Position numbers and translations under genes: made by a program. This document shows positions 1,936-17,863 of a stretch of 17,863 bases of DNA, in pieces (positions within the stretch are counted from its first letter, which is position 1; every line of letters starts with the position of its first letter). Source of the stretch: an uncultured Isosphaeraceae bacterium. GTDB lineage: Bacteria; Planctomycetota; Planctomycetia; Isosphaerales; Isosphaeraceae. Under the pieces are notes generated by a model, which did no database searches, was not told the origin of the DNA, and saw only the letters and a list, made by a program, of their open reading frames with translations. The stretch lies in assembly GCA_937858365.1 (NCBI GenBank), contig CALLYK010000373.1, positions 1-17,863 of the forward strand, in the 5' to 3' direction.

Positions 1936-1982
1936 CCGTGTGTCGACGGCCGGCGATTCGCTGACATTGGAACAATTGGCGC

Positions 1983-2035: not shown

Positions 2036-3268
2036 TCAAGGCGTCGGTCCGCAGAGGGCCGCGACCAGGCTGCGAACGAACGGCTCCACGTCCGTGACCA
2101 AACCGATGGTCTGGAAGGTCCCTCGGTCCGTGAGTTTGGTCACGGTGGCCGGGTTGATGTCCACGCAGACGACCTTCACCCCAGCCGGCAGCAGGTTGCC
2201 CGTGGCGATCGAGTGCAGGGTCGTGGCGATCATCAGGCAGAACCCGACGCCCCCATGGATCAGGCGCCGCATTTCGGCCTGGGCCTTCAGGACGTCGGTG
2301 ATCACCTCCGGCAGTGGGCCGTCGTCGCGTATCGAGCCGGCCAAGACCATCGCCACGTTCTTTTGAACGCATTCATACATGATCCCTGACTTGAGCAGCC
2401 CCGCCCGCACGGCCGCGGCGATGCCGCCGGCGCGTCGGATGGTATTGATCGCCCGCAGGTGGTGTTCGTGACCGTGTTCCACCGCCTCGCCGCGATCGAG
2501 CGAGACCCCGAGCGAGGTGTTGAAGAGGGCCTGTTCAATGTCGTGCGTGGCCAGCGCGTTGCCCGCGAAGAGCACGTCCACCCAGCCGCCGCGAATGAGT
2601 TCGGCGACGTGCGCCGAAGACCCTGTGTGGACGATCGCCGGCCCGGCTACGAGCAGGACCTTCCTCCCTTCCGCGCGGGTCGCACGCATGAGGTCGGCCA
2701 CGGTTTGGAGGCTTGCCGCCTTGGGTTTTTCGCTGGAGACGTTCGAGTTCATGAAGCCGAAGACCTGGGCCTCGCGCGGCCGGTCGATCGGCACGACGCG
2801 CACGCCGCCATGCCCCACCACGAACGCCTGACCAACCGTGACGTCGGTCATGGGCACACACCAGGCGGTCTTGCGTTCGATGTCCACGGCGATGCCGCAG
2901 TCCATTTCCTGGTCGGCCACTTCAACCCAGCGACCGGCGAGACGCACCTGCGTGGGTTGGTTGGTCGTGCTGTAGAAAGCGTCGGGGAACGCGCCCGCGA
3001 TGTCGGCCGGCACCAGATGTGCGTCTTCGGGGTGAACAGGCATGGCGCCGTGTTCGACGAGGTCGCCCAAGATGTCGTCGAGTTGCGCGGCCGAGTCGGC
3101 CTGGACGGCGATGCGCGCGTAGCTCGCGTCCACGCGACGCGCCCCGACCTTGCACTCGCGGATCTCGAACGAGCCACCCATGAGGAGGATGCGGTCGAGG
3201 ATCTTGGGCAAGAGGAGGGAGTCGATCAGATGGCCGCGGACCTCGATTTCCTCGGAAACGCCAGGCAT
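2036..3268 (-). CDS. TIGR00300 / LOR-SDH bifunctional-enzyme conserved-domain family protein (about 410 aa). Possibly an archaeal-type NAD-dependent ornithine cyclodeaminase-like enzyme.
   Basis: The six-frame ORF runs to 3412. The likely true start is the internal ATG at 3268, preceded by GAAGGGGG 7 nt upstream. The N-terminus (MPGVSEEIEVRGHLIDSLLLPKILDRILLMGGSFEI) matches my recollection of the family's conserved N-terminus (GH[IL]IDS..LPK.LD.I...GG.F). A Gly-rich dinucleotide-binding-like region follows (KVLLVAGPAIVHTGSS ... VLAGSIRDDGPL). Family assignment is from memory, not a search. Confidence 0.55.
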   Translation of the reverse strand: MPGVSEEIEVRGHLIDSLLLPKILDRILLMGGSFEIRECKVGARRVDASYARIAVQADSAAQLDDILGDLVEHGAMPVHPEDAHLVPADIAGAFPDAFYSTTNQPTQVRLAGRWVEVADQEMDCGIAVDIERKTAWCVPMTDVTVGQAFVVGHGGVRVVPIDRPREAQVFGFMNSNVSSEKPKAASLQTVADLMRATRAEGRKVLLVAGPAIVHTGSSAHVAELIRGGWVDVLFAGNALATHDIEQALFNTSLGVSLDRGEAVEHGHEHHLRAINTIRRAGGIAAAVRAGLLKSGIMYECVQKNVAMVLAGSIRDDGPLPEVITDVLKAQAEMRRLIHGGVGFCLMIATTLHSIATGNLLPAGVKVVCVDINPATVTKLTDRGTFQTIGLVTDVEPFVRSLVAALCGPTP

Positions 3269-3356
3269 GACGGGCCCCCTTCGCGGGAATGGAAGTGGCC
3301 CGCATTGTAACCGACGAAGGCCCCGTGCTGGGTAGCTTGGACGATCAACGCCCCGT

Positions 3357-3701
3357 TCAAGGGCCGATGTCTTTGGCCGTGATCTTGCGTTGTTCAACCA
3401 TTTGATAGACACGCGATGTCAACGGGGTGAGGATGCCGAAGATCATGGTCCCGAGAAGCCCGGGCAGCCCCAGACCATACCAAACGCCGAATGGTTGACC
3501 CATGAGAAGGCCCGCCACACCGGCGCAAAAGAGGACAGCGCAGACCCCGGTCGTCGTCCACATGACCCCGGTGAGAAAGACACGCCCGCGACCGAGGGGC
3601 GCGAGCGTGCCCATCAAGGTCCCCATCACTCCTCCCGCGACCCCCAAGAGCGTTCCGGGGAGCCAACTATAACGGATCGCGTCGAACCAAGGTTCGCTCA
3701 T
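3357..3701 (-). CDS. Small integral membrane protein (114 aa, about 4 predicted TM helices), function unknown.
   Basis: Start ATG at 3701-3699 follows SD AGAAAGAGG 7 nt upstream. The start overlaps the upstream gene's stop (ATGA, 3698-3701). Gly/Leu/Val-rich hydrophobic segments include LLGVAGGVMGTLMGTLAPL, VMWTTTGVCAVLFCAGVAGLLMG and LGLPGLLGTMIFGILTPL. Confidence 0.55.
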   Translation of the reverse strand: MSEPWFDAIRYSWLPGTLLGVAGGVMGTLMGTLAPLGRGRVFLTGVMWTTTGVCAVLFCAGVAGLLMGQPFGVWYGLGLPGLLGTMIFGILTPLTSRVYQMVEQRKITAKDIGP

Positions 3702-4015
3702 GGCCTGACCTCTTTCTTCAAGTCCTTCCGATGGGCCTCGATCAATTCGCGGGCCGTCGCGGGCGCGAGACGTCCATCGGCCACGAGCACGCGGACCATG
3801 CGCTCGAACGGACCATCCACGGTGAGATCATCCGCGGCCTGGACCTTGGCGATGAAGCGGTCTAAACGCGCCCGCACGGTGGGATAAGAAACACCGTACT
3901 CCGCCGCGAGGGCCTTCAAGGAACCGGACGCCACCACGAAACGCTTGAGAAATTGCCAATCCTCGTCATCAAGCGCCTCGACCCAGCCGGGAAGCGCGCC
4001 GGTGTCTCGCCCCAT
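3698..4015 (-). CDS. DUF2089-like small HTH protein (sigma70 region-4/LuxR-like helix-turn-helix). It lacks the N-terminal zinc ribbon of longer DUF2089 proteins.
   Basis: The six-frame track starts at a TTG (4018). The ATG at 4015-4013 with GAGGA 5 nt upstream is the more likely start. The motif DDEDWQFLKRFVVASGSLKALAAEYGVSYPTVRARLDRFIAKV matches the conserved DUF2089 core as I recall it. It is translationally coupled to the downstream membrane protein. Confidence 0.55.
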   Translation of the reverse strand: MGRDTGALPGWVEALDDEDWQFLKRFVVASGSLKALAAEYGVSYPTVRARLDRFIAKVQAADDLTVDGPFERMVRVLVADGRLAPATARELIEAHRKDLKKEVRP

Positions 4016-4039
4016 CAAGGTCCTCGCGACTGTCGCCGA

Positions 4040-4158: not shown

Positions 4159-7100
4159 TCACTCGGCGAACTTCCACGGCCCCGAGATCTCGACGTTGCG
4201 GACGCGCGTGGTGGGACTGTCGGCCCAGCGGAAGAGGCCGAAACGACGTGGGGCCCCTTTCTCCAGTGGCGCTTCGCCGAGCCTTTTGCCATTCAGCGTG
4301 ATCGACACCTTGTCGCCCGAAAGCGTGAGGGAGACCCGGTCCCATTCCTTTTCCTTGAACGGGAGCGGTCCTTTGTCGAAGCCGCTGAGTTCGGCGGTGT
4401 TGCCGGGTGAGAGGTCTTCCTGGCCGGTGCCGGGGTCCGTCAGGCGGTGGAGCTGCACACCTTCGGGCCCGAGCAGGAAGACTTGGCCGCCGATCGCCGG
4501 ATGGACCGAAGAGGGGCCCTTCTCGCCCCGAGCCTCATACGTGATCGTCTCGCCGTCGGCCATAGGCCGAGAGTGGAAGAGAGCGGTCTCGTAATCGACG
4601 GACGCGTTGGGGGCTTGCTTCCCGAGGACCTCCGTGTTTTGGGACTGCCAGAAAGAAGGCCAATTCGTGCCGCTCGGTGATCGGAGACCACTCCAGTCCG
4701 TCCACGTTCGCGGGCCGCTAAGTGCAACGCGATCCGGCACGGTGGGTCCCCCTTGGATACGGACGTCGCGCAGGGCGCCCTGGCCCGTGGCCGCCGACTT
4801 GAGGAAGAGCCAGGGAGACGCATCGCGCCGGATCGGTTCGTTGACGACCTGATGATCGGCGAGGAAGAACTGACAGCGCCCCCCCTTCACGACCATCCGG
4901 AAGGGGAGAAGTCCCCGCGCCGGGTCAACGGGTGGGTCGAGCGGGATCGTCCGCACCGCACCTCCGGCCGTGGTGAGTTGGGCATTCTTGCCCTCGGCGT
5001 CCACTTGAAGCGAGGTCCCAGCGTAATCGACGACGACCTGGTCGTCGCTCATCCCCTCGAGTAGGGCTTGGAAATCGAAGTCTCCCGTCAAGGGCGTTGC
5101 GAGGTACAGCCGCTCGGGACCTTGACCGGGAACATGGGCGATTCGGTGGTCCCGCTCTGTCCAAGTTGCCGGAAGCGAAGTCAAACTCGCCGCCCTGCTC
5201 GAATCACGTGAAGCGGTGAGCCAGCGTGAGCTTGGCGGGGAAAGGGCCTCGCCTCGCGCCAGCCGATCGCGTTCGAACGCGAGTCGCAGGGCGTCCAAGG
5301 TCGCCGGCGCGACGTACGGCTCGGGTTGTCCTTGCTGGGGAGGCTGGTTCTGTCGCCGGATCGGTGTTTTGGGCCCATCCGGCGGTCTCTTGGCCCGTTC
5401 TTTCAGAGCGTCGGCCAGCGGCGCCGCCGCTTCCAGGAGGTCGCGATTTGGGAGGACGCCGGCCAGAGCGAGCATCTCGGCCTGGCGCCCTTCCAGGGGC
5501 GCTTGGGGCGGCAGGGCCTTCGTCGCCTTGGTCAACTCCGCGAGCGTCGCGCGGGCCTCGTCGTTCCGGCCTTGTGCGCTCGCCACCAGCGTGGTCAGGG
5601 CCATTTTCACGCGGGCTTGAGGCTCGTCCTTCACGGGGACAGCAGCGAACTTTTCCGCGAGCTCGTCGAGCTTGCCGGCCTCGCGCGCGGCCGCGATCAT
5701 GTCGAAAACGGGAGAACCGAAGGTGCAGCCTTCCGGCGAAAAGACAGGGTATCGAGCGATACGCACGGACTCATGGGAGGCGGAAGGCAAGACCCATTCA
5801 ACGAGGCGCCTGTGGCGTTCCGCGGCGGGAAGGCCCTGGATTTCCCGGAGGAAGTGGGGGGCGTCGGCGATGACCGGGTAATCGCCGATCCAGGCCGCGC
5901 GAACGAGGCGCGCCGCCGGGTCGGGCGCGACCGCCGGTTCAAGAAGGTTTGCCGGCAGGGTCGCAGGCCAATCGCCGGTCAAGGTCGTCGCTCGGACCTT
6001 CACGCGGGTTTGGTCCTTGAAGTGAAAGAGGCCGAAAAGGCGGTCGTTCGCGGGCTCCAGCGGTCGTTCGGCGATCACCCGACCGTTGAGCGAAAGTGAA
6101 ACGGACCCGTCGCGCAGCGCGAGTTTGACCTCGTTCCAATCGTCCGCCTTGAGGGGCAGGGGGCCGGGGCCTTGCTTGATCGCAGGATCGTCCGCGACGT
6201 TGTTGATGGGCAGGCCCGTGGGGTCAAGGTCGGCCTTGTCGGTGATCCAGTGCGCCCGGACCCGATCCGGGTCGAGCTGGAAGACCAAGCGGCCGAGCGC
6301 CGGATGGACCATCTCGGCGCCCGGGACGTAATGGAACTCATAGGAGAGCGTATCCCCATCGCCGAGGGGCCTAACGAACCGGAGCAGGCTGGGTACGGAG
6401 TCGTCGGCGAGCGAGCCGATCGCGCGGTCGATGCGTTGGCCAATGATCACGCCATCGCCGGCTTCCCAGTCGAAGACGCGAGGCGCCGGCTCAGCGCCGC
6501 GCCGCTGATAGATGGCCTGAAACTCCTCGTCCGCGTCCCGCGACGACCTGCGAAGGACCGCGTCCTTACGAGGCTTGACCCTTTCTTTGAAGAAACGGGC
6601 CGACCATTGGCGCAGGTCGTCCCCTTGCAGCAGCTTCACGACGCGAGGGACTTCCGGCCTGCCGTCGATCCTCAAGTCGAGGAATCGCCCACCGGTAGCC
6701 TCCAGCGCGATCCAGGGAGACGATGGGCCTTTGGCCTCGTGAATCAGGCGGCCGTCGATCAGGAAGCGGGTGTGTTCGGGAGCGACGTCGATCGTGAGGC
6801 GAGTTGGTCCGTTTGAGGTGTTGGTGGGCAGGGCAGGGGAGACCGACTCGGAATGCGGTCCGATCATGCCGGGGCCGGCGAGACTGTCTTGGTTTCCCGT
6901 CCCGCCGTCAAACACGTAGTGTTGGCCTGGGGTCAAACCAATCGACTGCCCGCCGTAACTGAGGAGGCCCTGAAATGTGCGGACGTCGATCCGAAAAGTC
7001 CCCGTGATCGGGACCGCGAAGAAAAGGCACGAGTCATCGGGAGCACCCACATGGCCGAGCACGTCCTCCGCGAGCACCCAGCGAGCGACTTGCCCCGCCT

Positions 7101-10100
7101 CCGGGTGCGTTTGCGCCATCTCGTGCGGGGCCGGCCGCCAGAGAGCCGGCAGAGCGTCCGTGGGCGGTTGCGGGCCGACATCGGGGCCCGACCGCGCGTG
7201 ATTGAGAAGAACGGTCATCGCGCGGGAATTGATGGTGTTGCCGATGCGTCCGGCCAGGAGCTGGGCCTCGTTCCTCAGCGCCGGCACGCGCGCGGCCTCC
7301 TGCACGAGGAGCGCCTCGGGCCAATCTCGAGGCGCCTGGGTTTGATTCAGTTCATTCAGATAGACCGTTTGTTCTTGGGGCGAGCTCTGTCTCTTCTCGC
7401 GTTCCTCGCGGGCCGCGATGATCACGGGAAGGGCCTCTTCAGGCCGGCCTCGCGCGATTGCGACCAGGGCAACCAAGGCACCGGCCTGTTCGACCTTGGC
7501 GTCGGCTGCGTTGCGGGCCTCTTCGGCGAGTTCTTCTAGCTTACCGGCCTCGCGCGCCGCGGCGATCAGGGCCCCACTCGTCGAGACAATTCCATCCACC
7601 GCTTGAGGAGGTTGGGCCTTGAAGACGGCAGGGGTCTCATCTGTTGGGGCCCCGCAGGCCAGGAAGCGCACGAGTTTCCGGTCGTTGGTCGGAAGCGTCC
7701 AGGTCCTGAGTCGTTCATACCGCTCGGCTGCGGGGAGCCGCGCGAGCAAGTACGAAAGGCGTTGCAATGCCGGCGCGATGCTCGGCTCGTTGTAAGGGAC
7801 GACGGGAAGGTCGGCGAACTTGCCGAGGGCGAGCAAGGCCTCGTCGAGACGGTCGGCACGCGCGTACTCCACGGCGACGCGCGCCAAGGCGGTCTTCACT
7901 GGACCCGCCGACTGTTCGAAACTCTGGTTCGGAAGCCTCGGTAGTTCCTCGATGGCCTTCTGGTAGTCGTCAAGAAGGGCCGAAGCGGCGTCGGCCTTGT
8001 TCTTCGCGAAGTAGTGCCGCGCCAGGGCGATGCTGAGGTCTCCACCGCCGGCCGTGATCTGTCCGGCCGTGTTGAGTCGCTTGATGGCCCGCGCCACCAC
8101 GAGTTCGGCCGCTTCCGCGCAGGTGGGCGTCTTCAGGGCGGGTAAGGCCGCGTGGCAGGCCAGTTCGGCCGTGTTTTGCAGTGAGTCTTTTTCCAAACGC
8201 GCGGCCAGGTCGGCCAGGCCCTTGGAAGCAGACACGGAATCATCGGCTTTGAGGGCCAACAATGTCCTAAGGACCTTCAGCGGCAATTCGGCCAGGGGTT
8301 CGGCCGCACGGGCCTCGATCCGGCGTTCCAGGTCTTGCCGGGCGTTCGCGCGTAACGCCCAGGTTGCCAGGATCGCGCCGACGCTTCGCGGCGACGTTGT
8401 TCTCGATGCGGCCAAGGAGCTCGGATATAGGAAGGCCTCGCGCGGCCTCGCCTCGGGCAAGACGACCTCGCGAAGCACCGCGTAAACGTCGGCGGGCGGC
8501 ACCTTCGCTTCGACCCAGGCTCGCTCCAGTGGAATGATCGCCTGGATGACCGACTCGGGGCCGGACGTCTGGGCCGGTTCGTTCTGACCATAAACGCTGA
8601 CCACTCTCGTGAGGCGAAGATTGTTCGGCTCCACGTTGATGGGCGTGATCGGCGGCCCGCCGCGCAGGGCGTCGCGCGTGGCCCGTAGAGAGAGGGCCCC
8701 CAGGCCGTTTTCAGCGGCCAGCTTGGCGACCTCAAGGGCCTGTTGAAACCGATCAGCCGTCGTACCGATGGCCTGGGGCTGACTCACAGTGGTGAACGTG
8801 GTTAGCGCTCCAGAAGTGCTCGAAATGGCGAGGGGAGCGGCCGTGGCGGGCGCGGCGGGTTGAAGCCTCACGGCAGCCACGGCCCTGGTCATGACGGCCG
8901 TCGCCGCCGGGGCTGGGACGGACGGCGGGGGTGGAGGCGGTGCCAGTGACGTGCCGCCTGTTGGGGCGGTACCACCCGTCTTGGACGGGACAAGGATTGA
9001 TTCCAGGAGTTCCGTCCAATACGCTTCCGCGCGGGCCTTGTCGCCGGATTCGAGTGCGAGCTGGCCCCACTCTCGCAGGATCGCTTGCGTCCAGATCGCG
9101 TCGGTCTGGCGACGCGCCGCCTCACGGGCCCGCACGGCAAGCGTCTCGCCGATGGGCCGGAGCGACTCGTTTTTCAAGCAGAGTCGGGCCACCGGCCAGA
9201 CCCCCAGCCATTTCGCGGCCACGTCGCGCTGGCGGCTGTTGGCTCGGGCCCCCTTGGGCAGTTCTTCCAGGGGCGACCGATCCACCAAGGTGATGAGTCC
9301 TTTCAGCGCCGAATCGATGCCTTCAGCCTTGCCTTCCGCGAACGCGGCCAGGGAAAGGGCGACGTGTGCGCTCAAGTCGTCCGGCTTCTCGCTCGCGAGG
9401 CGCTTGAGTTCGTCGTTGGCCTCCTTGAAGAGTCCCGGTGTCCTCACGGCGCCCGTCAAGGTGTCGCCGAGAAGGCTGATGAGCGTCGCGTTACGCAGGT
9501 CGCGTGGTTGAACGAGAAGGACCAGGTCGAGGGCCTCGCCATGAGGGGCCGTCGCCCCAACCGGCCAGACGAGGCTGCGCAACGTGCGTTCACGGTCCTC
9601 CTGCTTTTCTAGGGCCCTAAGGGCGACCTGGACTTGATCGCGAAGCTGTTGGCTGAATTGGTCTTGGCCCCCGAACATCGAGGCGGCCGCGTTCAAGGTC
9701 GACGTGTCGGCGAGGGCCCCGTTGTAGATCCGAAGGGAGTCGGCGGGGAAGCCTGCTTGGAGTAGGAGCATGCCTCGCGACATGGACGCGTTCACTCGGC
9801 GATAAGCCTGGTACGCGGGGTCATTCACGTAGTATTCGTCATTGAGTCGATCGGGCCGAAGCAGGAGTGCCCGGGCTTCTTCCGGCCGCTCCGTGCGCCG
9901 ATAAAGCTCGGCCAGGCGACGGGCGATCGTGTTCTCCATGTCGTTGGGATCATTCTTAAAGGTCGGAGTCGCGAGGGTCTCCTTGTACAGGCGCTCGGCG
10001 AGCGGCTGCGTGGCGGGGTCGTTTTCCAACTCTTGCCCGAGCGCCAGGACGGTCGAAGACGTTCGCGGCGAGTTCTCGTCCAAGAGGGCGAAGAGTTCCG

Positions 10101-13100
10101 CGATCGCTTGAGCGCCTTGGGCGGTCCGGCCCGCTCGGAGGTCGATGATCGCCCGGATGCCCTTGCCGCCGTACCATTCGGGCCAGCGTTTCGTCGCCTC
10201 GTCGATCTCCGCGGCGATGGCGTCGAGCTTTCCTTGTCGGTCGGCTACCTGGAGCAGTCGGGCGAGCATGGTCATCGACTGACCGTTCCTGGAATACGAC
10301 ATGATGTTGCTGTCGAGCCCCGACCACGGTGCCGGGGGCCCGGCGCTCGCCTTGGGAATGAGGTAGTCGTGAACGTATTCGTAGAGTTCGGGGAGTTCCC
10401 AAACCTCGTCGCTCGGGCTGTTTAACAACATCTCATAGCGCGAGTTAGGGAGAGACTTCCAGCCCTTCTTGAAGATCTCCAGCGACAGCTCGCGCGTGCT
10501 CGAGTCGTTTTCCAGCGACATCATCAGGTTGGTGATCGCGTACGTCTGACCACGCGCCATCGCCCGTAGGTCGAGGTCCCGAACCAGCGCGATCAACTCG
10601 TCACGCTTGCCGGCCCGCTGGAATGCCTGGATCATCTGATACGCATAACGGCCGAACTGCGCCGGGTCTTTCTTGATGGCGACGGCGTAATGCTCGGCCG
10701 CCGTGGCGAAGTCCTGGGCCTGATAGGCCGTGTTGGCAATCTGTTGACGGAGTGCCGCGTCGTCGGGACGGAGTTCCAGGAGCTTTTTCTGGACCTCCTT
10801 CACCTTGTCGCGCTTGCCGGCCGCGTTGTAGTACATCGAGAGGGTTTGATAGAGGCCGATCGAGCTCGGCGAGCGCGCGACCTGACTTTCCAGCCGCTCG
10901 ATCTGTTCATCGAGCTTGCCAGAGCGCGAGAGTAACTGAAGGGCCTGCATCTGGGCCGCGTCGATCGACCCTGAGACGACATACGGCTGGTTCGAGCGTT
11001 GCGGCGAGCGGCGCATGATTTGGTAGGCCACTTGCAGGGCCTCTTCCATGCGGTCTTGCCGCTGATATTGGGCCATCAAGTTGGCCAGGGCGTTAGGGTC
11101 GTTGCCCGATCGGCGGCGGGCGCGACCCAGCACGGCCTCGGCCAACTCGTGCATGCCAAGCTGGTGCATCTGCTGGGCGAGTTGGACTTGAGTGTTCGCG
11201 TCCAGACGCAGGCCGAAAAGGCGTTCCGCTGCCTTCCGCGCCCGATCGACGTTGCCGCCCAACACGGCCAGGCGCAAGGCCAGCAACTCGCGACGCTGCA
11301 TCAGCTTCTGGTCGGCCGGCTCGACGGAATCGACCAACGCGAGCGCTTCCAGCGGCTCGTTGCGATTGGCCCGCAGTTCCGCCAGCGAGAGCTTCATCTC
11401 CACGTCGTTGGGGACGCTCTCGACCACCGTCGTCAGATCGCGCAGGGCCTCGTCTTTCTCGTCGTTCCACCACTTGATGTAAGCGAGGGCCAGGCGCTCG
11501 TAGTTAGGGTCGCGCATCGCGGCCTTCAGGCGGTCCTCGAGGTGCTTGGTCAGGTCGCTCAGGACGTCGCCTTGGCGATAGACCTCATAAGCGTTCCGCA
11601 AAACGCCGATGGCGGCCATATCGAAATAGGCCCCAGGCATGGGGAAGTCCAAGTTGATAAACCGCGAGGTGTTCCTGCCCAGAGAGATCGACACGCCCTG
11701 CCGGTTCTGGAATGTGCTTGAGGAGGCGCTTGCGCCCTTGGCCCGGCGGGCCACTCGTTCGGGTGCGGAAAGGCCGTCCAGGGCGTGGTCCAGAAGGCGG
11801 AGCACGTCGGGCATCCGCTTGTTCTCGTAACAATGGCCCATCGCTTGGGTGAAGCCGTTCAGCGCCATGCTTACCATCGTCGCCCCGCTTGGTTGCCTAG
11901 CGGTCAGGGCCCGATCGTACTTGTCCGCGAGGACGATCAATCGGTCGATGTCGCCACGGGAGGCCGCGAGGTTGAGGGCCACACTCAAACTGGACGGGTC
12001 GTTCGCGCTTTCCGTCATTTCGCGATAGAGGGCCTCTTCGGCCTCAGTACGCTTGGCCCGCTTCAACTCGGTGATCAAGCTGTTCGTGACGGCCCCAGCC
12101 CATTCCGGTTCGCGCTTCCGGAGCGTCTCATAAGAGGCGACGAGGGTGTCGAGCTCGTCGTCGGGAAGGGGGGGCGTCCGATCGACGTTTCCCTGAGTGG
12201 GCACGGCCGCGCGCAAGAGGCCCGCCGAGGCCCCAGGGTTGGTCCGGCCGGCCACCGATTGCAAGAACGCCCAGAGGCACTGCGGGTCGTTGGGGGCCGA
12301 TCGTGCCAGGAGCAGCCCCGCTTTGTAAAATTCCTTGGGCTCGTTGCGCAGCGATGTCAGATAAAACCAGTCGCGGACGGCGCGCGGGTCGGCGTTGGGG
12401 GCCTCGGCCGCTTCACGCAGCTGCTTCAAGAGGGCCTCGTCGGTCTCGTCGCGCTGGGCGACCACCACGAGCCAGGCCAGCGCGGCTTGACGCGCCTGAC
12501 CGTAGTCGTAGGGCGCCCAGGCCCGGCCCGATTGTGACATCTGCATCGAGTAATTCGCGTAGCGTGGGTCGAGTCCGGTGGCGCCGCGGACCTCGTAGTT
12601 CTGCGCGGCGCGTCGATACATCGGGTTCGATGTGTAGAGTGACTGGTTCGCCTGGGCGAGCGCGCTGACACCCGCCGGACGACCGCCCGACGTCTTCTTC
12701 CGCGTCCTCTCGATCAAGTTCAACTGGTCATCGTCCACGCGGAGGGAGAGCAGGTCGCGGAAACGTTGGGACGACTCCTTCAGCCTCTCGGCTTGCTGAA
12801 GCGCGAAGGCCTCTCGGTAGAGAAGGTCCCAGTTGGCCGGGTCCTTGCGCAAGAGTTTCTCCGTGATCGAGAGCACCGTCTCGTGCTTGCCCGCGGCGAT
12901 GAGGCTGTCGATCGCCTGGAGGACCCGATGGACCTCGGCCTCGTCGTTGGCGACGGCCATCCAAACGTTCTCGGCCTCCGTGGTCTCACCGGCCTTTGTG
13001 TAGAGCGTGGCCAAGCGAGTCGTGCCGTCGAATCCTGGGGCCACATCGTTGATTTGCTTCTGGTATCGCGCGGCCGAGTTGAAGTCTCCCTCGGTCTCCG

Positions 13101-15609
13101 CCAGGTTGGAAAGCTGCTGAAGGAGCTGTGTGTCGCGAGAGTTGGCCGCGAGCAGGCTTTCCAACTGCTGACGCGCGGCCATATAGTCGCCGGCCGACGT
13201 GTACGCTTGCGCCAGGCAGGCCGCTTTCTCGCGTGGCTGCTGCTGAACGTCTCCCTCTTGAAAGGCCCGCTCAATGCGCGCCGTCAGGCGGTCGAACTGG
13301 TTTTGCTGAAGGTAGAGGTTCGCGAGCTTGGCCACGATGCCCACCTTGGCGTCGAGCGCGGGTGTCTTGTCGAAGGCCCGCCAATAAATCTCGATCGCTT
13401 CTTCCGTGCGAAACTGACCGGCGAGTGCGTCGCCCAGCGTGAGGGCGGCCTTGGGGTCGGCCTCGTTCAAGCGCGCCGCGCGGCGGAGGGCCTTCAGCCC
13501 TTCCTCGGACTCGCCCAACCCAAAGCAAAGCTCGGCGAACGCCTGGTAGTGTTCCGGATTGTTGGGGGCCGCGGCGAGCAGTTCGCGCCCCGCCTTCAGG
13601 GCCTCATCACGACGGCCAAGGCGAGCCTCGAGGCGAGCGATCGCGGTGAGGTGCTCGGTCCGCGCCCTACGGTCGATCGCGGCCAACTTGCGGAAGAGGT
13701 CGGCGGCGGCGCCGAGATTTCCCGACGATTCCTCGAAGCGCGCCGCGGCCACGTGCGCCGGGACCGACTTCGGCTCGAGTTCGATCGCCTTGCGGATCGC
13801 CGCGAGCGCGTCGGGGAGACGTTGGGCCGCCTCGTCATATCGTGCCAGTTTCAGGTATCGTTCCGAGGTCGCTTCCTTGCCGGCATTGAGTTCCCCTTTC
13901 AACGTCTCGATCATGGCGCCGAGCTTACCGCCGGCTTGCAGGTCCTTGATCCGCGCGGTGAGCACGGCCTCGCGCTGCTCGGGATCGTCGGCGAGCGGTT
14001 CGGCCGCGTCGAGCTCGGCGAGGGCCTCGTCGTAACGCTCCAATTGCGCCAGCAAGTCGGCGTGTTTGATGCGCGGCTCGAACGACTTCGGGTCCATCCC
14101 CACGGCCTCCGCGGCGACCTTCTCGGCCTCTTTCCTGTAGCCAAAGCCGGAAAGGACCTCGGCCAGGCGCGCCAGGTTTGGCGCTGTGCGGTTTGGTCCT
14201 TCAGCCATCGCCGACCAAGCGGTCAGGGCCTCCTCACCGCGCTTCTGAGAGTGCAGGTTTTCGCCGAGATACTCGCGGAATTGCGGGGCGTCGGGGGCCA
14301 GACCCACGGCCTTGCGATAGAGTGAGAGGGCCTCGTCGTTGAGTTCGGCCTTGCGGAAGAGTTCGGCCACCTGGGCGGCGACACCCGCGTCTTTGGGGCG
14401 GGCCTCCAGGAGCTTCCGCCATACGGTCGCGGCGGCCTGCTTGCGCTCGACTTCCGGCCGCGCGGGGTCGCGCAGAATCAAGCGGCCCCAGTCGCGGATC
14501 GTGTCGGGATTGCCGGGGTCGGTCTTGGCCATTTCCTCGTACTGGCCGGCGGCCTCGCCGAACTTCTTCTCGGCCACGAGTTGCTCGACCAGGGCCAGCC
14601 GAAGTTCCTTGCGCGAAGGGGCCAACTTGACCGCCGCGGTAAGGGCCTCGCGCGCCTCGGGGGCCCGCCCAAGCGACGCGAGCACGCGGGCCCGGCGCGC
14701 GATCGCGTCGATGTCGTCCGGGTGCTTCTTGATCCAGCCTTCGTAATAAGTGGCTAGGCCGTTTTGGTCGTCGTTGCGCAGGAAGACCTCTTCCACCTTG
14801 CGTCTGACCTCCTTATGCAGCCAGCTCTCGGGGTTGAGGTTGGCGAGAAGGCCCTCGAAGTCGGCGACGGCATCGGTCTTCTTGCCCAGGCGGACCTTCA
14901 AATCGGCGACCTCCATCTTGTATTGGACCTTGCGATACGGGTCGCGCGCGGCGGCGGCGAGTTTCTCATAACGAGGCAAGGCCAGGGCCGACTGCCCCTC
15001 CTCGGCGAGCGTCAGGGCGATCTGCTCGGCCACGCGCGCGTCTTCGGGGAACTGCTTTTCCAGCCGTTCCCAAACCTTGAGGGCCTCGGCATCGCGACGG
15101 GCACGCTGATGGACGCGGCCCAGGGCCTGATACATCTCCATCGAATCGGCGCGGGCCGGCTTGCGCGCCAAGGCCCGCTCGAAGGCGTCGACGGCCGCGT
15201 CGGGGCGACCCACCAGCACGAGTGTCTGACCCAGATAGAACGAAGCCAGGGCGTCGTCGGGCCGGGTCTTTTCGGCCTCGCTGAAGGCGGTCACGGCGGA
15301 CGCGTCACGCCCGCGTTGCGCCTCGATCAGGCCAAGGACCATCCACGAGGCGCCGTCTTTGGGGTCCTGCGCCGTCTTTTCTCGATAGCGCGCGGTGAGC
15401 TGGTCGAGCGTGCCCCGTTCGACATGGTAGCCGTAAACGCGATCCAGCGCGGTGCCGCGCTTGGGTGTTTTTTCAAGCAGGCCGACGAACCGGTCGACCA
15501 CCTTCGCCTCGCGTTCGGAATCGGCATCGTCTTGGCCGAAGGCCGCCAAGGTGGCCAAGACCGTCAGGCTAAGACCCGTCGACCACCATCGGGACGCACG
15601 AAGACGCAT
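4159..15609 (-). CDS. Giant secreted multidomain protein (about 3,817 aa). It has a signal peptide, a TPR-like solenoid of about 2,200 aa, a Pro-rich linker, an alpha-helical region of about 500 aa, and two tandem modules of about 600 aa. Each module ends in two LamG/DUF1080-like jelly-roll domains. The architecture recalls the Rhodopirellula DUF1581/DUF1583 paralog families.
   Basis: One uninterrupted minus-strand frame covers 11.45 kb. The track's start (15786) is a 5' extension. The ATG at 15609-15607 has AGGGAGGA 7 nt upstream and is followed by a Sec-type signal peptide (MRLRASRWWSTGLSLTVLATLAAFG|QDD). Nt about 15530..9000 hold degenerate 34-residue A/L/E/R-rich TPR-like repeats. The linker TGGTAPTGGTSLAPPPPPPSVPAPAATAV is at about 8885-8960. 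Each C-terminal module holds two domains ending in DUF1080-like motifs (SPWIALEATGGRFLDLRIDGRP, FGLFHFKDQTRVKVRATTLTGDW, SPWLFLKSAATGQGALRDVRIQGGP, FGLFRWADSPTTRVRNVEISGPW). Confidence 0.85.
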   Translation of the reverse strand: MRLRASRWWSTGLSLTVLATLAAFGQDDADSEREAKVVDRFVGLLEKTPKRGTALDRVYGYHVERGTLDQLTARYREKTAQDPKDGASWMVLGLIEAQRGRDASAVTAFSEAEKTRPDDALASFYLGQTLVLVGRPDAAVDAFERALARKPARADSMEMYQALGRVHQRARRDAEALKVWERLEKQFPEDARVAEQIALTLAEEGQSALALPRYEKLAAAARDPYRKVQYKMEVADLKVRLGKKTDAVADFEGLLANLNPESWLHKEVRRKVEEVFLRNDDQNGLATYYEGWIKKHPDDIDAIARRARVLASLGRAPEAREALTAAVKLAPSRKELRLALVEQLVAEKKFGEAAGQYEEMAKTDPGNPDTIRDWGRLILRDPARPEVERKQAAATVWRKLLEARPKDAGVAAQVAELFRKAELNDEALSLYRKAVGLAPDAPQFREYLGENLHSQKRGEEALTAWSAMAEGPNRTAPNLARLAEVLSGFGYRKEAEKVAAEAVGMDPKSFEPRIKHADLLAQLERYDEALAELDAAEPLADDPEQREAVLTARIKDLQAGGKLGAMIETLKGELNAGKEATSERYLKLARYDEAAQRLPDALAAIRKAIELEPKSVPAHVAAARFEESSGNLGAAADLFRKLAAIDRRARTEHLTAIARLEARLGRRDEALKAGRELLAAAPNNPEHYQAFAELCFGLGESEEGLKALRRAARLNEADPKAALTLGDALAGQFRTEEAIEIYWRAFDKTPALDAKVGIVAKLANLYLQQNQFDRLTARIERAFQEGDVQQQPREKAACLAQAYTSAGDYMAARQQLESLLAANSRDTQLLQQLSNLAETEGDFNSAARYQKQINDVAPGFDGTTRLATLYTKAGETTEAENVWMAVANDEAEVHRVLQAIDSLIAAGKHETVLSITEKLLRKDPANWDLLYREAFALQQAERLKESSQRFRDLLSLRVDDDQLNLIERTRKKTSGGRPAGVSALAQANQSLYTSNPMYRRAAQNYEVRGATGLDPRYANYSMQMSQSGRAWAPYDYGQARQAALAWLVVVAQRDETDEALLKQLREAAEAPNADPRAVRDWFYLTSLRNEPKEFYKAGLLLARSAPNDPQCLWAFLQSVAGRTNPGASAGLLRAAVPTQGNVDRTPPLPDDELDTLVASYETLRKREPEWAGAVTNSLITELKRAKRTEAEEALYREMTESANDPSSLSVALNLAASRGDIDRLIVLADKYDRALTARQPSGATMVSMALNGFTQAMGHCYENKRMPDVLRLLDHALDGLSAPERVARRAKGASASSSTFQNRQGVSISLGRNTSRFINLDFPMPGAYFDMAAIGVLRNAYEVYRQGDVLSDLTKHLEDRLKAAMRDPNYERLALAYIKWWNDEKDEALRDLTTVVESVPNDVEMKLSLAELRANRNEPLEALALVDSVEPADQKLMQRRELLALRLAVLGGNVDRARKAAERLFGLRLDANTQVQLAQQMHQLGMHELAEAVLGRARRRSGNDPNALANLMAQYQRQDRMEEALQVAYQIMRRSPQRSNQPYVVSGSIDAAQMQALQLLSRSGKLDEQIERLESQVARSPSSIGLYQTLSMYYNAAGKRDKVKEVQKKLLELRPDDAALRQQIANTAYQAQDFATAAEHYAVAIKKDPAQFGRYAYQMIQAFQRAGKRDELIALVRDLDLRAMARGQTYAITNLMMSLENDSSTRELSLEIFKKGWKSLPNSRYEMLLNSPSDEVWELPELYEYVHDYLIPKASAGPPAPWSGLDSNIMSYSRNGQSMTMLARLLQVADRQGKLDAIAAEIDEATKRWPEWYGGKGIRAIIDLRAGRTAQGAQAIAELFALLDENSPRTSSTVLALGQELENDPATQPLAERLYKETLATPTFKNDPNDMENTIARRLAELYRRTERPEEARALLLRPDRLNDEYYVNDPAYQAYRRVNASMSRGMLLLQAGFPADSLRIYNGALADTSTLNAAASMFGGQDQFSQQLRDQVQVALRALEKQEDRERTLRSLVWPVGATAPHGEALDLVLLVQPRDLRNATLISLLGDTLTGAVRTPGLFKEANDELKRLASEKPDDLSAHVALSLAAFAEGKAEGIDSALKGLITLVDRSPLEELPKGARANSRQRDVAAKWLGVWPVARLCLKNESLRPIGETLAVRAREAARRQTDAIWTQAILREWGQLALESGDKARAEAYWTELLESILVPSKTGGTAPTGGTSLAPPPPPPSVPAPAATAVMTRAVAAVRLQPAAPATAAPLAISSTSGALTTFTTVSQPQAIGTTADRFQQALEVAKLAAENGLGALSLRATRDALRGGPPITPINVEPNNLRLTRVVSVYGQNEPAQTSGPESVIQAIIPLERAWVEAKVPPADVYAVLREVVLPEARPREAFLYPSSLAASRTTSPRSVGAILATWALRANARQDLERRIEARAAEPLAELPLKVLRTLLALKADDSVSASKGLADLAARLEKDSLQNTAELACHAALPALKTPTCAEAAELVVARAIKRLNTAGQITAGGGDLSIALARHYFAKNKADAASALLDDYQKAIEELPRLPNQSFEQSAGPVKTALARVAVEYARADRLDEALLALGKFADLPVVPYNEPSIAPALQRLSYLLARLPAAERYERLRTWTLPTNDRKLVRFLACGAPTDETPAVFKAQPPQAVDGIVSTSGALIAAAREAGKLEELAEEARNAADAKVEQAGALVALVAIARGRPEEALPVIIAAREEREKRQSSPQEQTVYLNELNQTQAPRDWPEALLVQEAARVPALRNEAQLLAGRIGNTINSRAMTVLLNHARSGPDVGPQPPTDALPALWRPAPHEMAQTHPEAGQVARWVLAEDVLGHVGAPDDSCLFFAVPITGTFRIDVRTFQGLLSYGGQSIGLTPGQHYVFDGGTGNQDSLAGPGMIGPHSESVSPALPTNTSNGPTRLTIDVAPEHTRFLIDGRLIHEAKGPSSPWIALEATGGRFLDLRIDGRPEVPRVVKLLQGDDLRQWSARFFKERVKPRKDAVLRRSSRDADEEFQAIYQRRGAEPAPRVFDWEAGDGVIIGQRIDRAIGSLADDSVPSLLRFVRPLGDGDTLSYEFHYVPGAEMVHPALGRLVFQLDPDRVRAHWITDKADLDPTGLPINNVADDPAIKQGPGPLPLKADDWNEVKLALRDGSVSLSLNGRVIAERPLEPANDRLFGLFHFKDQTRVKVRATTLTGDWPATLPANLLEPAVAPDPAARLVRAAWIGDYPVIADAPHFLREIQGLPAAERHRRLVEWVLPSASHESVRIARYPVFSPEGCTFGSPVFDMIAAAREAGKLDELAEKFAAVPVKDEPQARVKMALTTLVASAQGRNDEARATLAELTKATKALPPQAPLEGRQAEMLALAGVLPNRDLLEAAAPLADALKERAKRPPDGPKTPIRRQNQPPQQGQPEPYVAPATLDALRLAFERDRLARGEALSPPSSRWLTASRDSSRAASLTSLPATWTERDHRIAHVPGQGPERLYLATPLTGDFDFQALLEGMSDDQVVVDYAGTSLQVDAEGKNAQLTTAGGAVRTIPLDPPVDPARGLLPFRMVVKGGRCQFFLADHQVVNEPIRRDASPWLFLKSAATGQGALRDVRIQGGPTVPDRVALSGPRTWTDWSGLRSPSGTNWPSFWQSQNTEVLGKQAPNASVDYETALFHSRPMADGETITYEARGEKGPSSVHPAIGGQVFLLGPEGVQLHRLTDPGTGQEDLSPGNTAELSGFDKGPLPFKEKEWDRVSLTLSGDKVSITLNGKRLGEAPLEKGAPRRFGLFRWADSPTTRVRNVEISGPWKFAE
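4162..5950 (-). repeat. Module copy 2 of the duplicated unit, forming the C-terminus of the giant protein.
   Basis: Motifs in the same order: ...LPAAERHRRLVEWVLP ... IAAAREAGKLDELAEKFAAV ... PLTGDFDFQAL ... SPWLFLKSAATGQGALRDVRIQGGPTVP ... TYEARGEKGPSSVHPAIGGQVFLL ... WDRVSLTLSGDKVSITLNGKRLGEAPLEK ... FGLFRWADSPTTRVRNVEISGPW. DNA of the paralogous segments 5659-5704 and 7528-7573 is about 80% identical by hand alignment. Confidence 0.5.
5951..7850 (-). repeat. Module copy 1 (intragenic, protein level) of the duplicated unit of about 600 aa in the giant gene.
   Basis: Order of motifs: ...LPAAERYERLRTWTLP ... IAAAREAGKLEELAEEARNA ... PITGTFRIDV ... SPWIALEATGGRFLDLRIDGRPEVP ... SYEFHYVPGAEMVHPALGRLVFQL ... 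WNEVKLALRDGSVSLSLNGRVIAERPLEP ... FGLFHFKDQTRVKVRATTLTGDW. Boundaries are approximate (+/- 100 nt). Confidence 0.5.
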
Positions 15610-15896
15610 CGTCTGGTCCTCCCTGTTCGCGGGGCATCGAGAGCGAGCGGCACCAGGCAAGGCCGCTTGTCCCCGAAGAGCATAGTCGTGGAGACGGGGC
15701 CAACGCAACGTAGCGGAAGCGGATTTCCCGAATCGACACGACCGGGGCCCATGTGCCTTCAGCATCGAAACAGTCCTGGGCGACATCGAGAAGTGGGAAA
15801 GGGCCCACCTGATTTCCTTTGACGGACGAATTCCGTCGGGGTAAGTTGTGACAAAATCGGAAACAGATTTCGCCTTCCCTAGCGGAGCATGCGTCG
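15610..15896. promoter_or_regulatory. Divergent intergenic control region (287 bp) between the giant gene and the MoxR operon. It holds candidate promoters on both strands and three GATTTC[CG] heptamers.
   Basis: Toward MoxR: TTGACG (15819-15824), 17-nt spacer, TAAGTT (15842-15847), then an AT-rich TTGTGACAAAATCGGAAACAGATTTCG. Toward the giant gene (minus sense): TTGCGT, 18-nt spacer, TATGCT at about 15680-15710. GATTTCC occurs at 15722-15728 and 15811-15817, and GATTTCG at 15866-15872. Confidence 0.4.
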
Positions 15897-16904
15897 ATGA
15901 CCAACACCGAGGAGGCGAAGGCCCAGCTTGACGCCTTCCGCGCCGATTTTCAGGCGATGCGCCGCGAGGTCGGCAAAGTCATCGTCGGCCATGAAGAGAT
16001 CATTGACGGCACGCTCACGGCCCTGATCGCGGGCGGCCACGTTCTGTTGGAAGGCGTGCCCGGTTTGGGCAAGACCTTGCTCGTCCGCACGTTGGCCGAC
16101 GCTTTGCATCTTAAGTTCCAGCGCATTCAGTTCACGCCCGACCTCATGCCGGCCGACCTGATCGGCACGAACGTCGTCCACGAGAGCGACGACGGCCGTC
16201 GCCGGTTCGATTTCCAGCCAGGCCCCGTCTTCGCGAACCTCGTCCTGGCCGACGAGATCAATCGGGCCACACCCAAAACGCAGTCGGCCTTGCTCGAAGC
16301 CATGGCGGAGAAGTCGGTCACGGTCGCCGGCAAGACACATCAGCTTGATCGCCCCTTCCTGGTGATGGCCACCCAAAACCCGTTGGAAATGGAAGGGACC
16401 TACCCGCTGCCGGAGGCCCAACTCGATCGCTTCCTGTTCAAACTCCTCGTGAAGTTCCCTACGGCGGGCGAGATCGAGGCGATCCTCAGCCGCACGACCG
16501 AGGCCGGCGAACCCAGGGCGGAGGCGATCTTCGACGGGCCGCGCATCCTCGAACTGGCCCGTCTGGCCCGCCAGGTCCCCATCGCCGACGAACTGCGGCG
16601 CTACGGCGTGACGCTTGTGCTGGCGACACATCCGGAAAGTGAACACGCGACGGAAATGACGAAACGTTTCGTCCGATACGGGGCCAGTCCGCGGGGTGCT
16701 CAAGCGATCGTCTTGGGGGCGAAGATCCGGGCGATTCTGGATCATCGTTATCATGTCTCGCGCGAGGACTTGCGGTCGGTCGCCCACGCGGCCTTGCGGC
16801 ATCGGATGATCCTGAACTTCGAGGGCCAGGCCGAGAACATCGAGCCCGACGACATCCTCGACGACATTATCGGGCGCGTGGAAGCGCCCGCCGTGGCAGT
16901 CTGA
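15897..16904 (+). CDS. moxR: MoxR-family AAA+ ATPase (335 aa).
   Basis: Walker A (LLEGVPGLGKTLL), Walker B (NLVLADEINRATPKTQSALLEAMAE) and sensor region (FLVMATQNPLEMEGTYPLPEAQLDRF) are present. The C-terminal helical lid follows. GGAG lies about 9 nt upstream of the ATG. Overall size and layout are typical of MoxR/RavA-like ATPases. Confidence 0.9.
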   Translation: MTNTEEAKAQLDAFRADFQAMRREVGKVIVGHEEIIDGTLTALIAGGHVLLEGVPGLGKTLLVRTLADALHLKFQRIQFTPDLMPADLIGTNVVHESDDGRRRFDFQPGPVFANLVLADEINRATPKTQSALLEAMAEKSVTVAGKTHQLDRPFLVMATQNPLEMEGTYPLPEAQLDRFLFKLLVKFPTAGEIEAILSRTTEAGEPRAEAIFDGPRILELARLARQVPIADELRRYGVTLVLATHPESEHATEMTKRFVRYGASPRGAQAIVLGAKIRAILDHRYHVSREDLRSVAHAALRHRMILNFEGQAENIEPDDILDDIIGRVEAPAVAV

Positions 16905-16937: not shown

Positions 16938-17426
16938 ATGAAGCGTCTTCTCGTCGTGATCGCCGTGGCCTCGCCGATGCTATGCGCCTCCTCCGTTGAG
17001 GCGCAGGTCGTGGACCCAACGATCCTTGAGGGCCTTCGTCGCCACGTGCCGCCCGAGCATCCGCTTCAAGACGACTCGCCGCCCAACGAAATCATCGAAG
17101 CACGCTTGCGCATCGCATCGCGTCAGTTCAATGCGGCGTTGGATCGCGTCTTTCCGTCATCGTCGTTGTCCAAGCCCGACCGGACGGCGGTATCGTCGCT
17201 TCTGGAGTGGTCGACCAAGTGCATGGAGGCCCGGTTGGAAGCGGCCGATCGCGACTCCGACCGCAAGGTCGCCTACGCGATCGAGGCGGCCCGCTTCCGC
17301 AAGATCGAGGGACTCGTCTTGGAGCGCTTGCGCGGTCCGGCAGCGTCGTTTTCCGCCGAGGACGCCGATCGCGTGGCCTTTCATCGCTTGGGTCTGGACC
17401 TGAAACAAGCCACCCTCGGCCGCTAG
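16938..17426 (+). CDS. Small secreted or periplasmic hypothetical protein (162 aa) inserted between moxR and the DUF58 gene.
   Basis: Signal peptide MKRLLVVIAVASPMLCASSVEA|Q. GAGGG lies upstream in the 33-nt gap after moxR. The mature part is helical and charged. No family was recognised. The frame carries many serine and arginine residues, and most codon third positions are G or C. Confidence 0.5.
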   Translation: MKRLLVVIAVASPMLCASSVEAQVVDPTILEGLRRHVPPEHPLQDDSPPNEIIEARLRIASRQFNAALDRVFPSSSLSKPDRTAVSSLLEWSTKCMEARLEAADRDSDRKVAYAIEAARFRKIEGLVLERLRGPAASFSAEDADRVAFHRLGLDLKQATLGR

Positions 17427-17451: not shown

Positions 17452-17863
17452 ATGGCCCTTTTCGGTTCGGACTTCCTGGCCAAGCTGGAATACCTCTCCC
17501 TGGTCTCCCGCCGGGTCTTTCAGGGGCAGGTCCTCGCCCAAAGGCGGACCAAGCAAATGGGGGGCGGCATCGAGTTCGCGGACCACCGCGACTACACCCC
17601 GGGCGACGATTTCCGGCACATCGACTGGACGGTCTTCGCCGCACTGCTGCGACAGGAACAATTGGCCGAAAAAGTCGGCTGGCAAAGGTCGTTATTTCTG
17701 GATGCCGAACAACTCCCGCACGAGGTGTATCACATCCCGCGCGAAACGAGTTGTCTCTTGAATACAAAAGTTTCCGGCAGCGGCTTGATCATCGGCCAGT
17801 TGTCCGGGGGCGTGACGATCCAACCCCGCGATGTGCTACAGCAGATTTCGACCGGACGCACAG
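17452..17863 (+). CDS. DUF58-like protein (classic MoxR partner), N-terminal 137 aa. It is truncated by the window end.
   Basis: ATG at 17452 follows AGGAGA 5 nt upstream and lies 25 nt after the previous stop. The hallmark DUF58 motif is present: GGGIEFADHRDYTPGDDFRHIDW (compare G.G.EF...R.Y..GDD.R.IDW). Downstream sequence fits less well (..RSLFLDAEQL instead of the usual LLLD.S.SM). A lower-GC patch occupies about 17690-17790. Confidence 0.55.
   Translation, partial: MALFGSDFLAKLEYLSLVSRRVFQGQVLAQRRTKQMGGGIEFADHRDYTPGDDFRHIDWTVFAALLRQEQLAEKVGWQRSLFLDAEQLPHEVYHIPRETSCLLNTKVSGSGLIIGQLSGGVTIQPRDVLQQISTGRT

Follow-up and report, generated by a model that had tools for sequence, protein, structure and literature searches.

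A 17,863-nt contig of an uncultured Isosphaeraceae bacterium (CALLYK010000373.1, assembly GCA_937858365.1; the whole stretch is referred to here as the window) carries on its minus strand a giant gene whose predicted product of 3,816 amino acids (aa) combines an export-type signal, a TPR-like alpha-solenoid, a Pro/Thr-rich linker and two C-terminal modules of lectin-like fold. Sequence comparisons place this protein in a giant TPR-DUF1583 orthologous family found in hundreds of planctomycete genomes, and at most of the ortholog loci assessed the gene stands divergently beside a cluster of MoxR, DUF58 and VWA genes. We propose that the protein may be a Sec-exported periplasmic TPR scaffold of a Bat-like MoxR/VWA system with tethered lectin-like heads, a tentative reading to which we give somewhat less than an even chance.

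Gene, product and export signal

The longest open reading frame (ORF) of the window spans positions 4159..15786 of the minus strand (3,875 codons), and the chance of a stop-free run of this length at the window's base composition is ~1e-45. The ATG at 15609, which is Met60 of the maximal ORF, gives an uninterrupted product with a predicted mass of 418.6 kDa and a pI of 6.2; all residue numbers used here are counted from this start. The choice is supported by a GGAGG Shine-Dalgarno sequence 8 nt 5' of the start, by a signal-peptide-like segment that begins exactly there, by the N-termini of the orthologs, which start at the matching point, and by independent database gene calls, among them P0155 (NCBI/ENA/Logan), a 3,816-aa protein with the same start that is identical to the window translation and is encoded on a 17,863-nt contig, the window itself. 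A previous sequence-only reading of the window had described one ORF of about 3,800 aa filling 64% of it, and this gene is confirmed at 11,451 of 17,863 nt. The gene and the parts of its product are as follows.

4159..15609, minus strand: giant gene, 3,816 codons plus stop (4159-4161)
15535..15609, minus strand: predicted Sec-type signal peptide, residues 1-25, MRLRASRWWSTGLSLTVLATLAAFG then QDD (rule-based, hydropathy)
8998..15432, minus strand: TPR-like alpha-solenoid, residues ~60-2204 (Pfam, hhalign, AlphaFold2, Foldseek)
8740..8997, minus strand: Pro/Thr/Ala/Gly-rich linker, residues 2205-2290
7690..8739, minus strand: helical region H1, residues 2291-2640 (hhalign, H1 versus H3 98.1%)
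7153..7689, minus strand: helical domain H2 of module A, residues 2641-2819 (hhalign, H2 versus H3 98.7%; module A/B alignment)
6634..7152, minus strand: beta-sandwich 1 of module A, residues ~2820-2992 (Pfam; homology to the modelled module B)
5950..6633, minus strand: beta-sandwich 2 of module A, residues ~2993-3220 (DUF1583_N at 3072-3216, E 3.9e-44)
5230..5949, minus strand: helical domain H3 of module B and variable loop, residues 3221-3460 (module alignment, hhalign)
4714..5229, minus strand: beta-sandwich 1 of module B, residues ~3461-3632 (DUF1581 at 3571-3639; AlphaFold2 strands 24-190 of the model)
4162..4713, minus strand: beta-sandwich 2 of module B, residues ~3633-3816 (DUF1583_N at 3673-3813)

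The N-terminus reads MRLRASRWW followed by GLSLTVLATLAAFG and QDD. Its n-region is basic, its hydrophobic core is 14 residues long (mean Kyte-Doolittle 2.1), and its c-region consists of small residues of cleavage type. By these rules the signal is predicted to be of Sec type, neither a twin-arginine translocation signal nor that of a lipoprotein: the N-terminus has no twin-arginine motif, and the first Cys of the protein is residue 695, which leaves no lipobox. Equivalent signal-like N-termini, ending in A-x-A/G-Q, are kept in the orthologs, in agreement with the Sec signal that had been read from the sequence before. Hydropathy analysis found no further transmembrane-like segment anywhere in the protein. 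Scans for sigma-70 promoters and intrinsic terminators at both ends of the gene returned no match, and searching the window for Rfam families and tRNAs was likewise without a match. The plus strand of 4159-15609 contains long antisense ORFs, the longest of 519 aa (12766-14325), which are probably shadow ORFs of GC-rich DNA.

TPR solenoid and linker

Several Pfam TPR families score above threshold within residues ~80-1680, including TPR_19 (116.8 bits), TPR_14 (98 bits), TPR_16, TPR_8, TPR_2 and others. Alignment of sub-alignments with hhalign relates region 60-500 to regions 500-960 (97.7%), ~1055-1440 (94.8%), 1440-1700 (96.5%) and ~1790-1970 (95%), and by such profile-profile comparison TPR-like repeats were traced to residue ~1970. 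An AlphaFold2 model of residues 1001-2200, built on a 13-sequence alignment, has ~62 helices of 12-18 residues arranged in helix-turn-helix pairs, with three short hairpins and some disordered loops as the only interruptions (mean predicted local distance difference test, pLDDT, 80.6). Its Foldseek neighbours in the PDB are the long TPR scaffolds Ski3, IFT139/TTC21B, Ctr9, TTC7B, the OGT TPR domain and Naa15 (E 1e-12 to 1e-7), with which it has a continuous TPR superhelix in common; these are eukaryotic cytoplasmic or nuclear proteins, and the likeness is one of fold class only (11-17% identity, TM-score ≤0.2 over full length). Among NCBIfam models the best similarities are to the PEP-CTERM TPR protein PrsT, PilW, LapB and PgaA, all below cut-off. 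The TPR-like array of ~2,200 aa suggested earlier is supported by all three lines (Pfam matches, hhalign and the modelled helical solenoid), and the poly-Pro/Thr-Gly linker said to follow it is seen at residues 2205-2290, with PPPPPP at residue 2224.

C-terminal modules

Two Pfam families recur in the C-terminal part of the protein. PF20407 (DUF1583_N) reaches 250.6 bits against a gathering score of 22.9, in two stretches (3072-3216 and 3673-3813), and PF07619 (DUF1581) reaches 81.4 bits against 27, also in two (2947-3010 and 3571-3639). With both families above their cut-offs, the resemblance to DUF1581/DUF1583 proteins put forward in the sequence-only reading is true family membership. PF07622, the DUF1583 C domain, has no match even at E≤1 in searches with C-terminal pieces; the second DUF1583_N is the last domain of the protein. 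The two modules are homologous to one another (residues 2650-3260 versus 3261-3816, 27% identity, E 5e-39). An AlphaFold2 model of residues 3440-3816, built on 24 sequences, shows two all-beta domains (pLDDT 85.7, predicted template-modelling score 0.85), and the closest solved folds are those of DUF1080 proteins, concanavalin-like beta-sandwiches. In this model the stretch matched by Pfam 'DUF1581' covers the final strands of sandwich 1 and the connector between the domains. The boundaries of the first sandwich of module A were inferred from invariant Trp/Pro columns.

Judged from the module B model, the module alignment and the Pfam pairs, each module is predicted to consist of a helical domain followed by two concanavalin-like beta-sandwiches, giving four sandwiches in total; this bears out the four jelly-roll domains in two modules, and the beta-sandwich fold, proposed from the sequence. 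The helical domain occurs three times (~2360-2517, 2640-2790 and 3250-3410; hhalign 98.1% and 98.7%), the first copy lying within H1. The layout given by the sequence-only reading was complete in its main parts, with one refinement: ~550 aa of helical domains (2291-2819) stand between the linker and the first sandwich, and the second beta pair is likewise preceded by a helical domain.

The label 'DUF1080-like' holds for the fold and not for the sequence score. PF06439 (DUF1080) scores 13.2 bits (E 0.09), in module B only, where the gathering score is 26.8, and profile matches to solved DUF1080 chains are limited to the structural WN...NG strand motif. Relatives of the window protein do reach the PF06439 threshold (40.5 bits for the short paralog P0001, 26.8-27.9 for Pirellulales orthologs). 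The window modules are alike in fold, though not in score, to members of the DUF1080 family such as BT3469 (PDB 4jqt, a tandem DUF1080 protein), 3hbk, 3imm and the enzyme BT2157; the genomic context of the window protein is not one of sugar oxidation. HExxH is absent and the whole protein has 11 Cys, as expected from the earlier statement that no HExxH or Cys-rich motif was present.

Orthologous family and conservation

With the last 1,166 aa of the protein as query, an exhaustive HMMER search returned 1,278 cluster representatives at E≤1e-3, of which the top 150 were examined. Their lengths are bimodal, at ~1,500-2,000 aa and ~3,500-4,100 aa. At least 41 of the 150 are 3,600-4,200 aa long and end-to-end collinear with the window protein at 32-41% identity; most align in a single piece, from residues ~2-41 through 3812, and four in two collinear pieces. 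All 41 begin with a signal-like sequence. The whole ~3,800-aa layout is thus common to giant orthologs such as that of Singulisphaera sp. PoT (WP_422924867.1). Database names of the relatives are 'DUF1583 domain-containing protein' (WP_422924867.1; Pirellulaceae HUE70745.1) or 'TPR repeat protein'. A scan in which each species was represented by a single genome gave 371 loci that encode relatives. The 80 best of these, which were inspected, are nearly all from Planctomycetota (Isosphaeraceae, Gemmataceae, Pirellulales, Planctomycetaceae, Thermoguttaceae and Kolteria), and the closest relative among them belongs to an Isosphaeraceae metagenome-assembled genome (MAG), at 56%.

Shorter paralogs of 1,700-2,000 aa (P0001-P0004) have the arrangement (DUF1581-DUF1583_N)x2 followed by DUF1583 C domains. 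They share with the window protein the same tandem of a helical domain, DUF1581 and DUF1583_N, present twice; P0001 is collinear with residues 2537-3812, and residue 2537 is where collinearity with the N-terminal part of the shorter paralogs starts. Relative to them the window protein has an additional 2,200-aa TPR solenoid and linker, and relative both to them and to the giants of Pirellulales and Planctomycetales it is without the PF07622 C domain. The protein had been described as belonging to no named, characterised family. The family is indeed uncharacterised, and no paper on DUF1583 or DUF1581 was found in the literature searched, but the architecture is not singular, as orthologs exist and are already annotated.

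Majority-residue frequency along a 24-ortholog alignment is mostly 0.61-0.76 over residues 51-950, with dips of 0.49-0.56 at 501-600 and 851-900, and has a second peak of 0.74 at residues 1451-1500. The linker (0.24) and the loop at 3401-3450 (0.18) have the lowest values, and the beta modules have 0.32-0.56. Natural length variants follow the same division. TPR-only forms of ~2,280-2,450 aa end exactly at the linker (L018, L042, L062 and L072), forms of ~2,750 aa end before the first sandwich (L034, L058 and L074), and the ~4,100-aa forms of Pirellulales and Planctomycetales (L021, L028 and L036) add a C-terminal DUF1583 C domain. The conservation profile and these variants together suggest that the TPR solenoid is the constant core of the family and the lectin-fold modules are accessory. 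The emphasis previously placed on carbohydrate-directed heads is shifted accordingly, to a conserved TPR part with beta modules that are less conserved and in some relatives dispensable.

In L003, the locus of the closest relative, the reading frame changes ~50 residues past the linker (L003:16990-17290). Gene fission at the linker was considered and rejected: homology continues upstream of the first ATG of the second ORF, in another frame, which points to a frameshift in one gene (an assembly error or a pseudogene). Several frame changes are also seen in L070 and L017; those in all three loci are probably assembly errors or pseudogenised second copies and not fission.

Four ortholog contigs (L069, L073, L049 and L055) are labelled Candidatus Kuenenia, Alcaligenaceae or Chitinophaga, have a GC content of 54-67%, and in one case (L049) have neighbours near-identical to a Gemmataceae locus. 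On these two grounds they are probably mis-binned planctomycete contigs. An extension of the family to anammox bacteria was considered but not accepted, as the two 'Kuenenia' contigs are 54-56% GC, unlike Kuenenia, whose GC content is roughly 41%.

Linkage to a MoxR/VWA cluster

Upstream of the giant gene, and divergent from it, the window carries three features.

15897..16904, plus strand: MoxR (AAA_3) ATPase gene, separated by 287 nt from the start of the giant gene (Pfam AAA_3, 216.8 bits)
16938-17426, plus strand: 162-aa ORF between MoxR and DUF58, with a signal-like N-terminus (MKRLLVVIAVASPMLCASSVEAQ)
17452..17863, plus strand: 5' part of a DUF58 gene that is truncated where the contig ends (match to the first 20 positions of the Pfam DUF58 profile)

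A census of 45 full-length ortholog loci, 43 of them assessable, was made by tblastn and by clustering the ORFs on either side of the giant gene. At 31 of the 43 a MoxR gene of opposite orientation lies within 700 bp upstream of the giant gene, normally followed by genes for DUF58, a BatA_N+VWA protein (~636 aa) and a VWA+GATase1_like protein (~875 aa); at five further loci of the 43 the cluster is nearby in another arrangement. The same MoxR arrangement is present at L003 and at L074, the latter without beta modules. The MoxR gene and the start of the DUF58 gene are adjacent to the giant gene in the window, while the BatA_N+VWA and VWA genes are known from the ortholog loci and would lie beyond the contig end here. 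Residues 1-87 of the window DUF58 are 74% identical to the DUF58 of L003. This conserved MoxR/DUF58/VWA cluster had gone unmentioned in the sequence-only reading, whose picture of the neighbourhood was incomplete in this respect.

A further linked gene encodes a 497-aa protein with N-terminal transmembrane segments, a long K/E-rich coiled coil and a Cys-rich patch (L021:22304-23797, plus strand), for which neither Pfam nor PADLOC gave a match. It is found directly downstream of the giant gene at 14 loci and at the far end of the MoxR cluster at 14 others (e.g. ~7.3 kb upstream in L008), and since either position keeps the linkage, the gene stays linked through rearrangements. Immediately downstream of the giant gene (4-330 bp), at Gemmataceae-type loci only, is a gene for a 956-aa multi-WD40 protein (L008:21449-24319, plus strand).

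Searches with PADLOC models of anti-phage defence systems, MoxR-vWA ternary conflict systems among them, gave no match for the giant protein, DUF58 or the VWA proteins either, and for MoxR only a weak generic AAA match (mad8, 22.9 bits). A MoxR-vWA-beta-propeller conflict system was considered but is not supported, as the window MoxR scores 216.8 bits with AAA_3 against 50 bits with bpMoxR, the cluster is of the DUF58/BatA kind, and the WD40 gene is lineage-restricted. In the literature searched, no report was found that connects Bat/MoxR clusters of planctomycetes with a giant TPR protein; within it, the conserved MoxR/VWA linkage and the TPR part as conserved core appear to be new.

Two details of the window cluster are recorded here. 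The 162-aa ORF matches no Pfam family, and none of the 80 related loci contains a homolog; MoxR and DUF58 are directly adjacent in L003, and several other loci have extra space between them. The last ~150 nt of the DUF58 frame (~17714-17863) diverge from L003, and GC content drops to 0.54-0.57 over 17601-17800; this divergence could be an assembly error at the contig end, a frameshift or a junction with foreign sequence.

Proposed role and alternative readings

MoxR genes of the MRP type are typically found in operons with genes for DUF58, VWA and TPR proteins (PMC11834572). For Bat proteins, a large envelope complex formed through their vWF and TPR domains has been proposed, as has an action of MoxR on the metal-ion-dependent adhesion site (MIDAS) of VWA domains (PMC3557215). 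In BB0173, a protein of BatA type, the VWFA domain is on the periplasmic side (PMC5700661). Bat/MRP clusters of Bacteroides, spirochaetes, Francisella and Riemerella, with their TPR proteins BatC/BatE, have in common with the planctomycete cluster the gene set MoxR AAA_3, DUF58, BatA_N+VWA and a further VWA protein. The TPR component differs: that of the window is 10-15 times larger, soluble, predicted to be Sec-exported, fused to lectin-fold domains and encoded divergently rather than within the operon. We know of no aerotolerance link for planctomycetes.

In the scheme we tentatively favour, the giant protein would be a Sec-exported, soluble envelope protein of ~420 kDa. After export, its N-terminal TPR superhelix (~2,150 aa, 240 kDa) would serve as a long protein-docking platform and as the partner of the divergent MoxR-DUF58-BatA/VWA-VWA(GATase1-like) cluster, itself a candidate planctomycete version of MRP/Bat-type MoxR systems. 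The flexible Pro/Thr-rich linker would tether the two modules, each a helical domain with two DUF1080-like sandwiches. These modules would most likely bind a glycan or other envelope ligand, rather than act as catalysts, and so may couple a membrane-anchored VWA complex to the wall or outer layers. A surface or periplasmic scaffold with carbohydrate-type heads had already been put forward from the sequence, and at the level of architecture the predicted folds and signal support that interpretation. A more ambitious version, which we consider doubtful, is that the giant protein together with the MoxR, DUF58, BatA/VWA, VWA(GATase1-like) and 497-aa proteins forms a single envelope machine, kept throughout the planctomycete orders sampled, with a 240-kDa periplasmic TPR core that MoxR, acting from the cytoplasm, assembles or remodels via the VWA proteins and with the lectin-fold modules as lineage-variable attachments to the wall or outer layers.

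Several points weigh against the scaffold of a Bat-like system. The linkage is absent at 7 of the 43 assessable loci; six of the seven are from lineages (Isosphaeraceae, Schlesneria) for which the retrieved loci include two copies, and at least two MAGs have a MoxR-linked copy besides the unlinked one, so that the unlinked copies have the appearance of duplicates. The giant gene is transcribed divergently from the MoxR cluster and is no part of its operon. Pfam and NCBIfam revealed no specific similarity to Bat TPR proteins, the best NCBIfam similarity being generic (PrsT, 162 versus 312 bits), and the signal peptide was assigned by inspection and hydropathy rules alone. Concanavalin-like domains can bind proteins as well as glycans, and some DUF1080 proteins are enzymes. 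The function of the Bat systems themselves is also not settled (PMC3557215).

Some of the same observations would fit a stand-alone periplasmic or envelope scaffold with lectin heads, engaged for example in polysaccharide or wall assembly in the manner of BcsC, PgaA, AlgK or PrsT, in which case the adjacency of MoxR would reflect shared regulation or history. The architecture and export signal agree with this reading, the sub-threshold NCBIfam similarities to PrsT, PilW, LapB and PgaA lean towards it, and the seven loci and the TPR-only relatives without a MoxR neighbour are in its favour. We nevertheless regard it as unlikely, given that the linkage is kept across orders (31-36 of 43 loci) in a phylum that keeps little synteny, that the protein has no porin or beta-barrel domain, and that genes for making or exporting polysaccharides are absent from the window and the conserved flanks. 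The beta modules could alternatively be the working part, as 3-keto-glycoside lyases or hydratases acting on an envelope or environmental glycan, with the TPR rod merely positioning them. DUF1080 proteins are their nearest folds, relatives such as P0001 and the Pirellulales orthologs pass the PF06439 threshold, and catalysis has been demonstrated for BT2157 and AL2, both DUF1080 members (PMC8121099; bioRxiv 10.1101/2024.03.25.586180). A carbohydrate-processing enzyme is still improbable in our view: the window protein itself stays at 13.2 bits (E 0.09) against PF06439, its matches to DUF1080-chain profiles cover only the WN...NG strand motif, its beta modules are less conserved than the TPR part and absent from some relatives, and genes for GFO/MocA-type 3-dehydrogenases or sugar isomerases were found neither in the window nor in the conserved flanks.

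The signal peptide, giant size, PT-rich linker and tandem lectin-fold domains, together with structural neighbours that include the lectin domains of the adhesins Aap and SraP, could also describe an adhesin, secreted or on the cell surface, or a component of a surface layer, with external glycans or the surfaces of prey or hosts as its targets. We judge this to have little probability, as Pfam and NCBIfam gave no surface-sorting or anchoring match, the C-terminus (...SGPWKFAE) has no hydrophobic segment, the linked genes encode cytoplasmic and inner-membrane proteins, and strong conservation of the TPR core is unusual for surface-exposed adhesins. That the gene is an annotation artefact or pseudogene (a chance long ORF or an assembly chimera) has in its favour that GC-rich DNA gives long shadow ORFs, such as the 519-aa one on the opposite strand, and that the far end of this MAG contig looks imperfect; the chance estimate of ~1e-45, end-to-end collinearity with dozens of orthologs, Pfam domains well above threshold and confident structure models effectively refute it.

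Other genes in the window

Downstream of the giant gene the window holds four further genes.

3698-4018, minus strand: DUF2089 helix-turn-helix gene, 140 nt downstream of the giant gene
3357-3701, minus strand: gene for a 114-aa membrane protein with several hydrophobic segments, overlapping the DUF2089 gene by 4 nt
2036-3412, minus strand: 458-aa ArgZ-like/LOR-SDH gene (Saccharop_dh_N plus ArgZ-like C-terminal domain, PF21570, 330.7 bits)
271-1935, plus strand: SPFH/Band 7 gene, 554 aa (family match)

None of the four recurs beside the orthologs. By its domain matches the product of 2036-3412 appears to be an enzyme of the arginine dihydrolase/LOR-SDH type, unrelated to the giant gene. A 416-aa ORF antisense to the SPFH gene (748-1998, minus strand) matches no Pfam family and resembles a shadow ORF of GC-rich DNA.

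Implications

Bat/MRP-type MoxR-VWA-TPR clusters are widespread and are without an established mechanism, and planctomycete envelopes are unusual and little understood in molecular terms. If the linkage is not functional, the window protein would be an ordinary, very large member of an uncharacterised paralogous family. With a large, strongly conserved and readily recognised TPR partner, linked in several planctomycete orders to one MoxR/VWA cluster, a 'DUF' annotation becomes a testable hypothesis, for which the conserved TPR segments (~40-950 and 1451-1500) are candidate docking sites. Should the giant protein and the linked gene products prove to be one machine, it would represent a hypertrophied Bat complex specific to planctomycetes and would be a candidate for a structural part of their unusual cell envelope.

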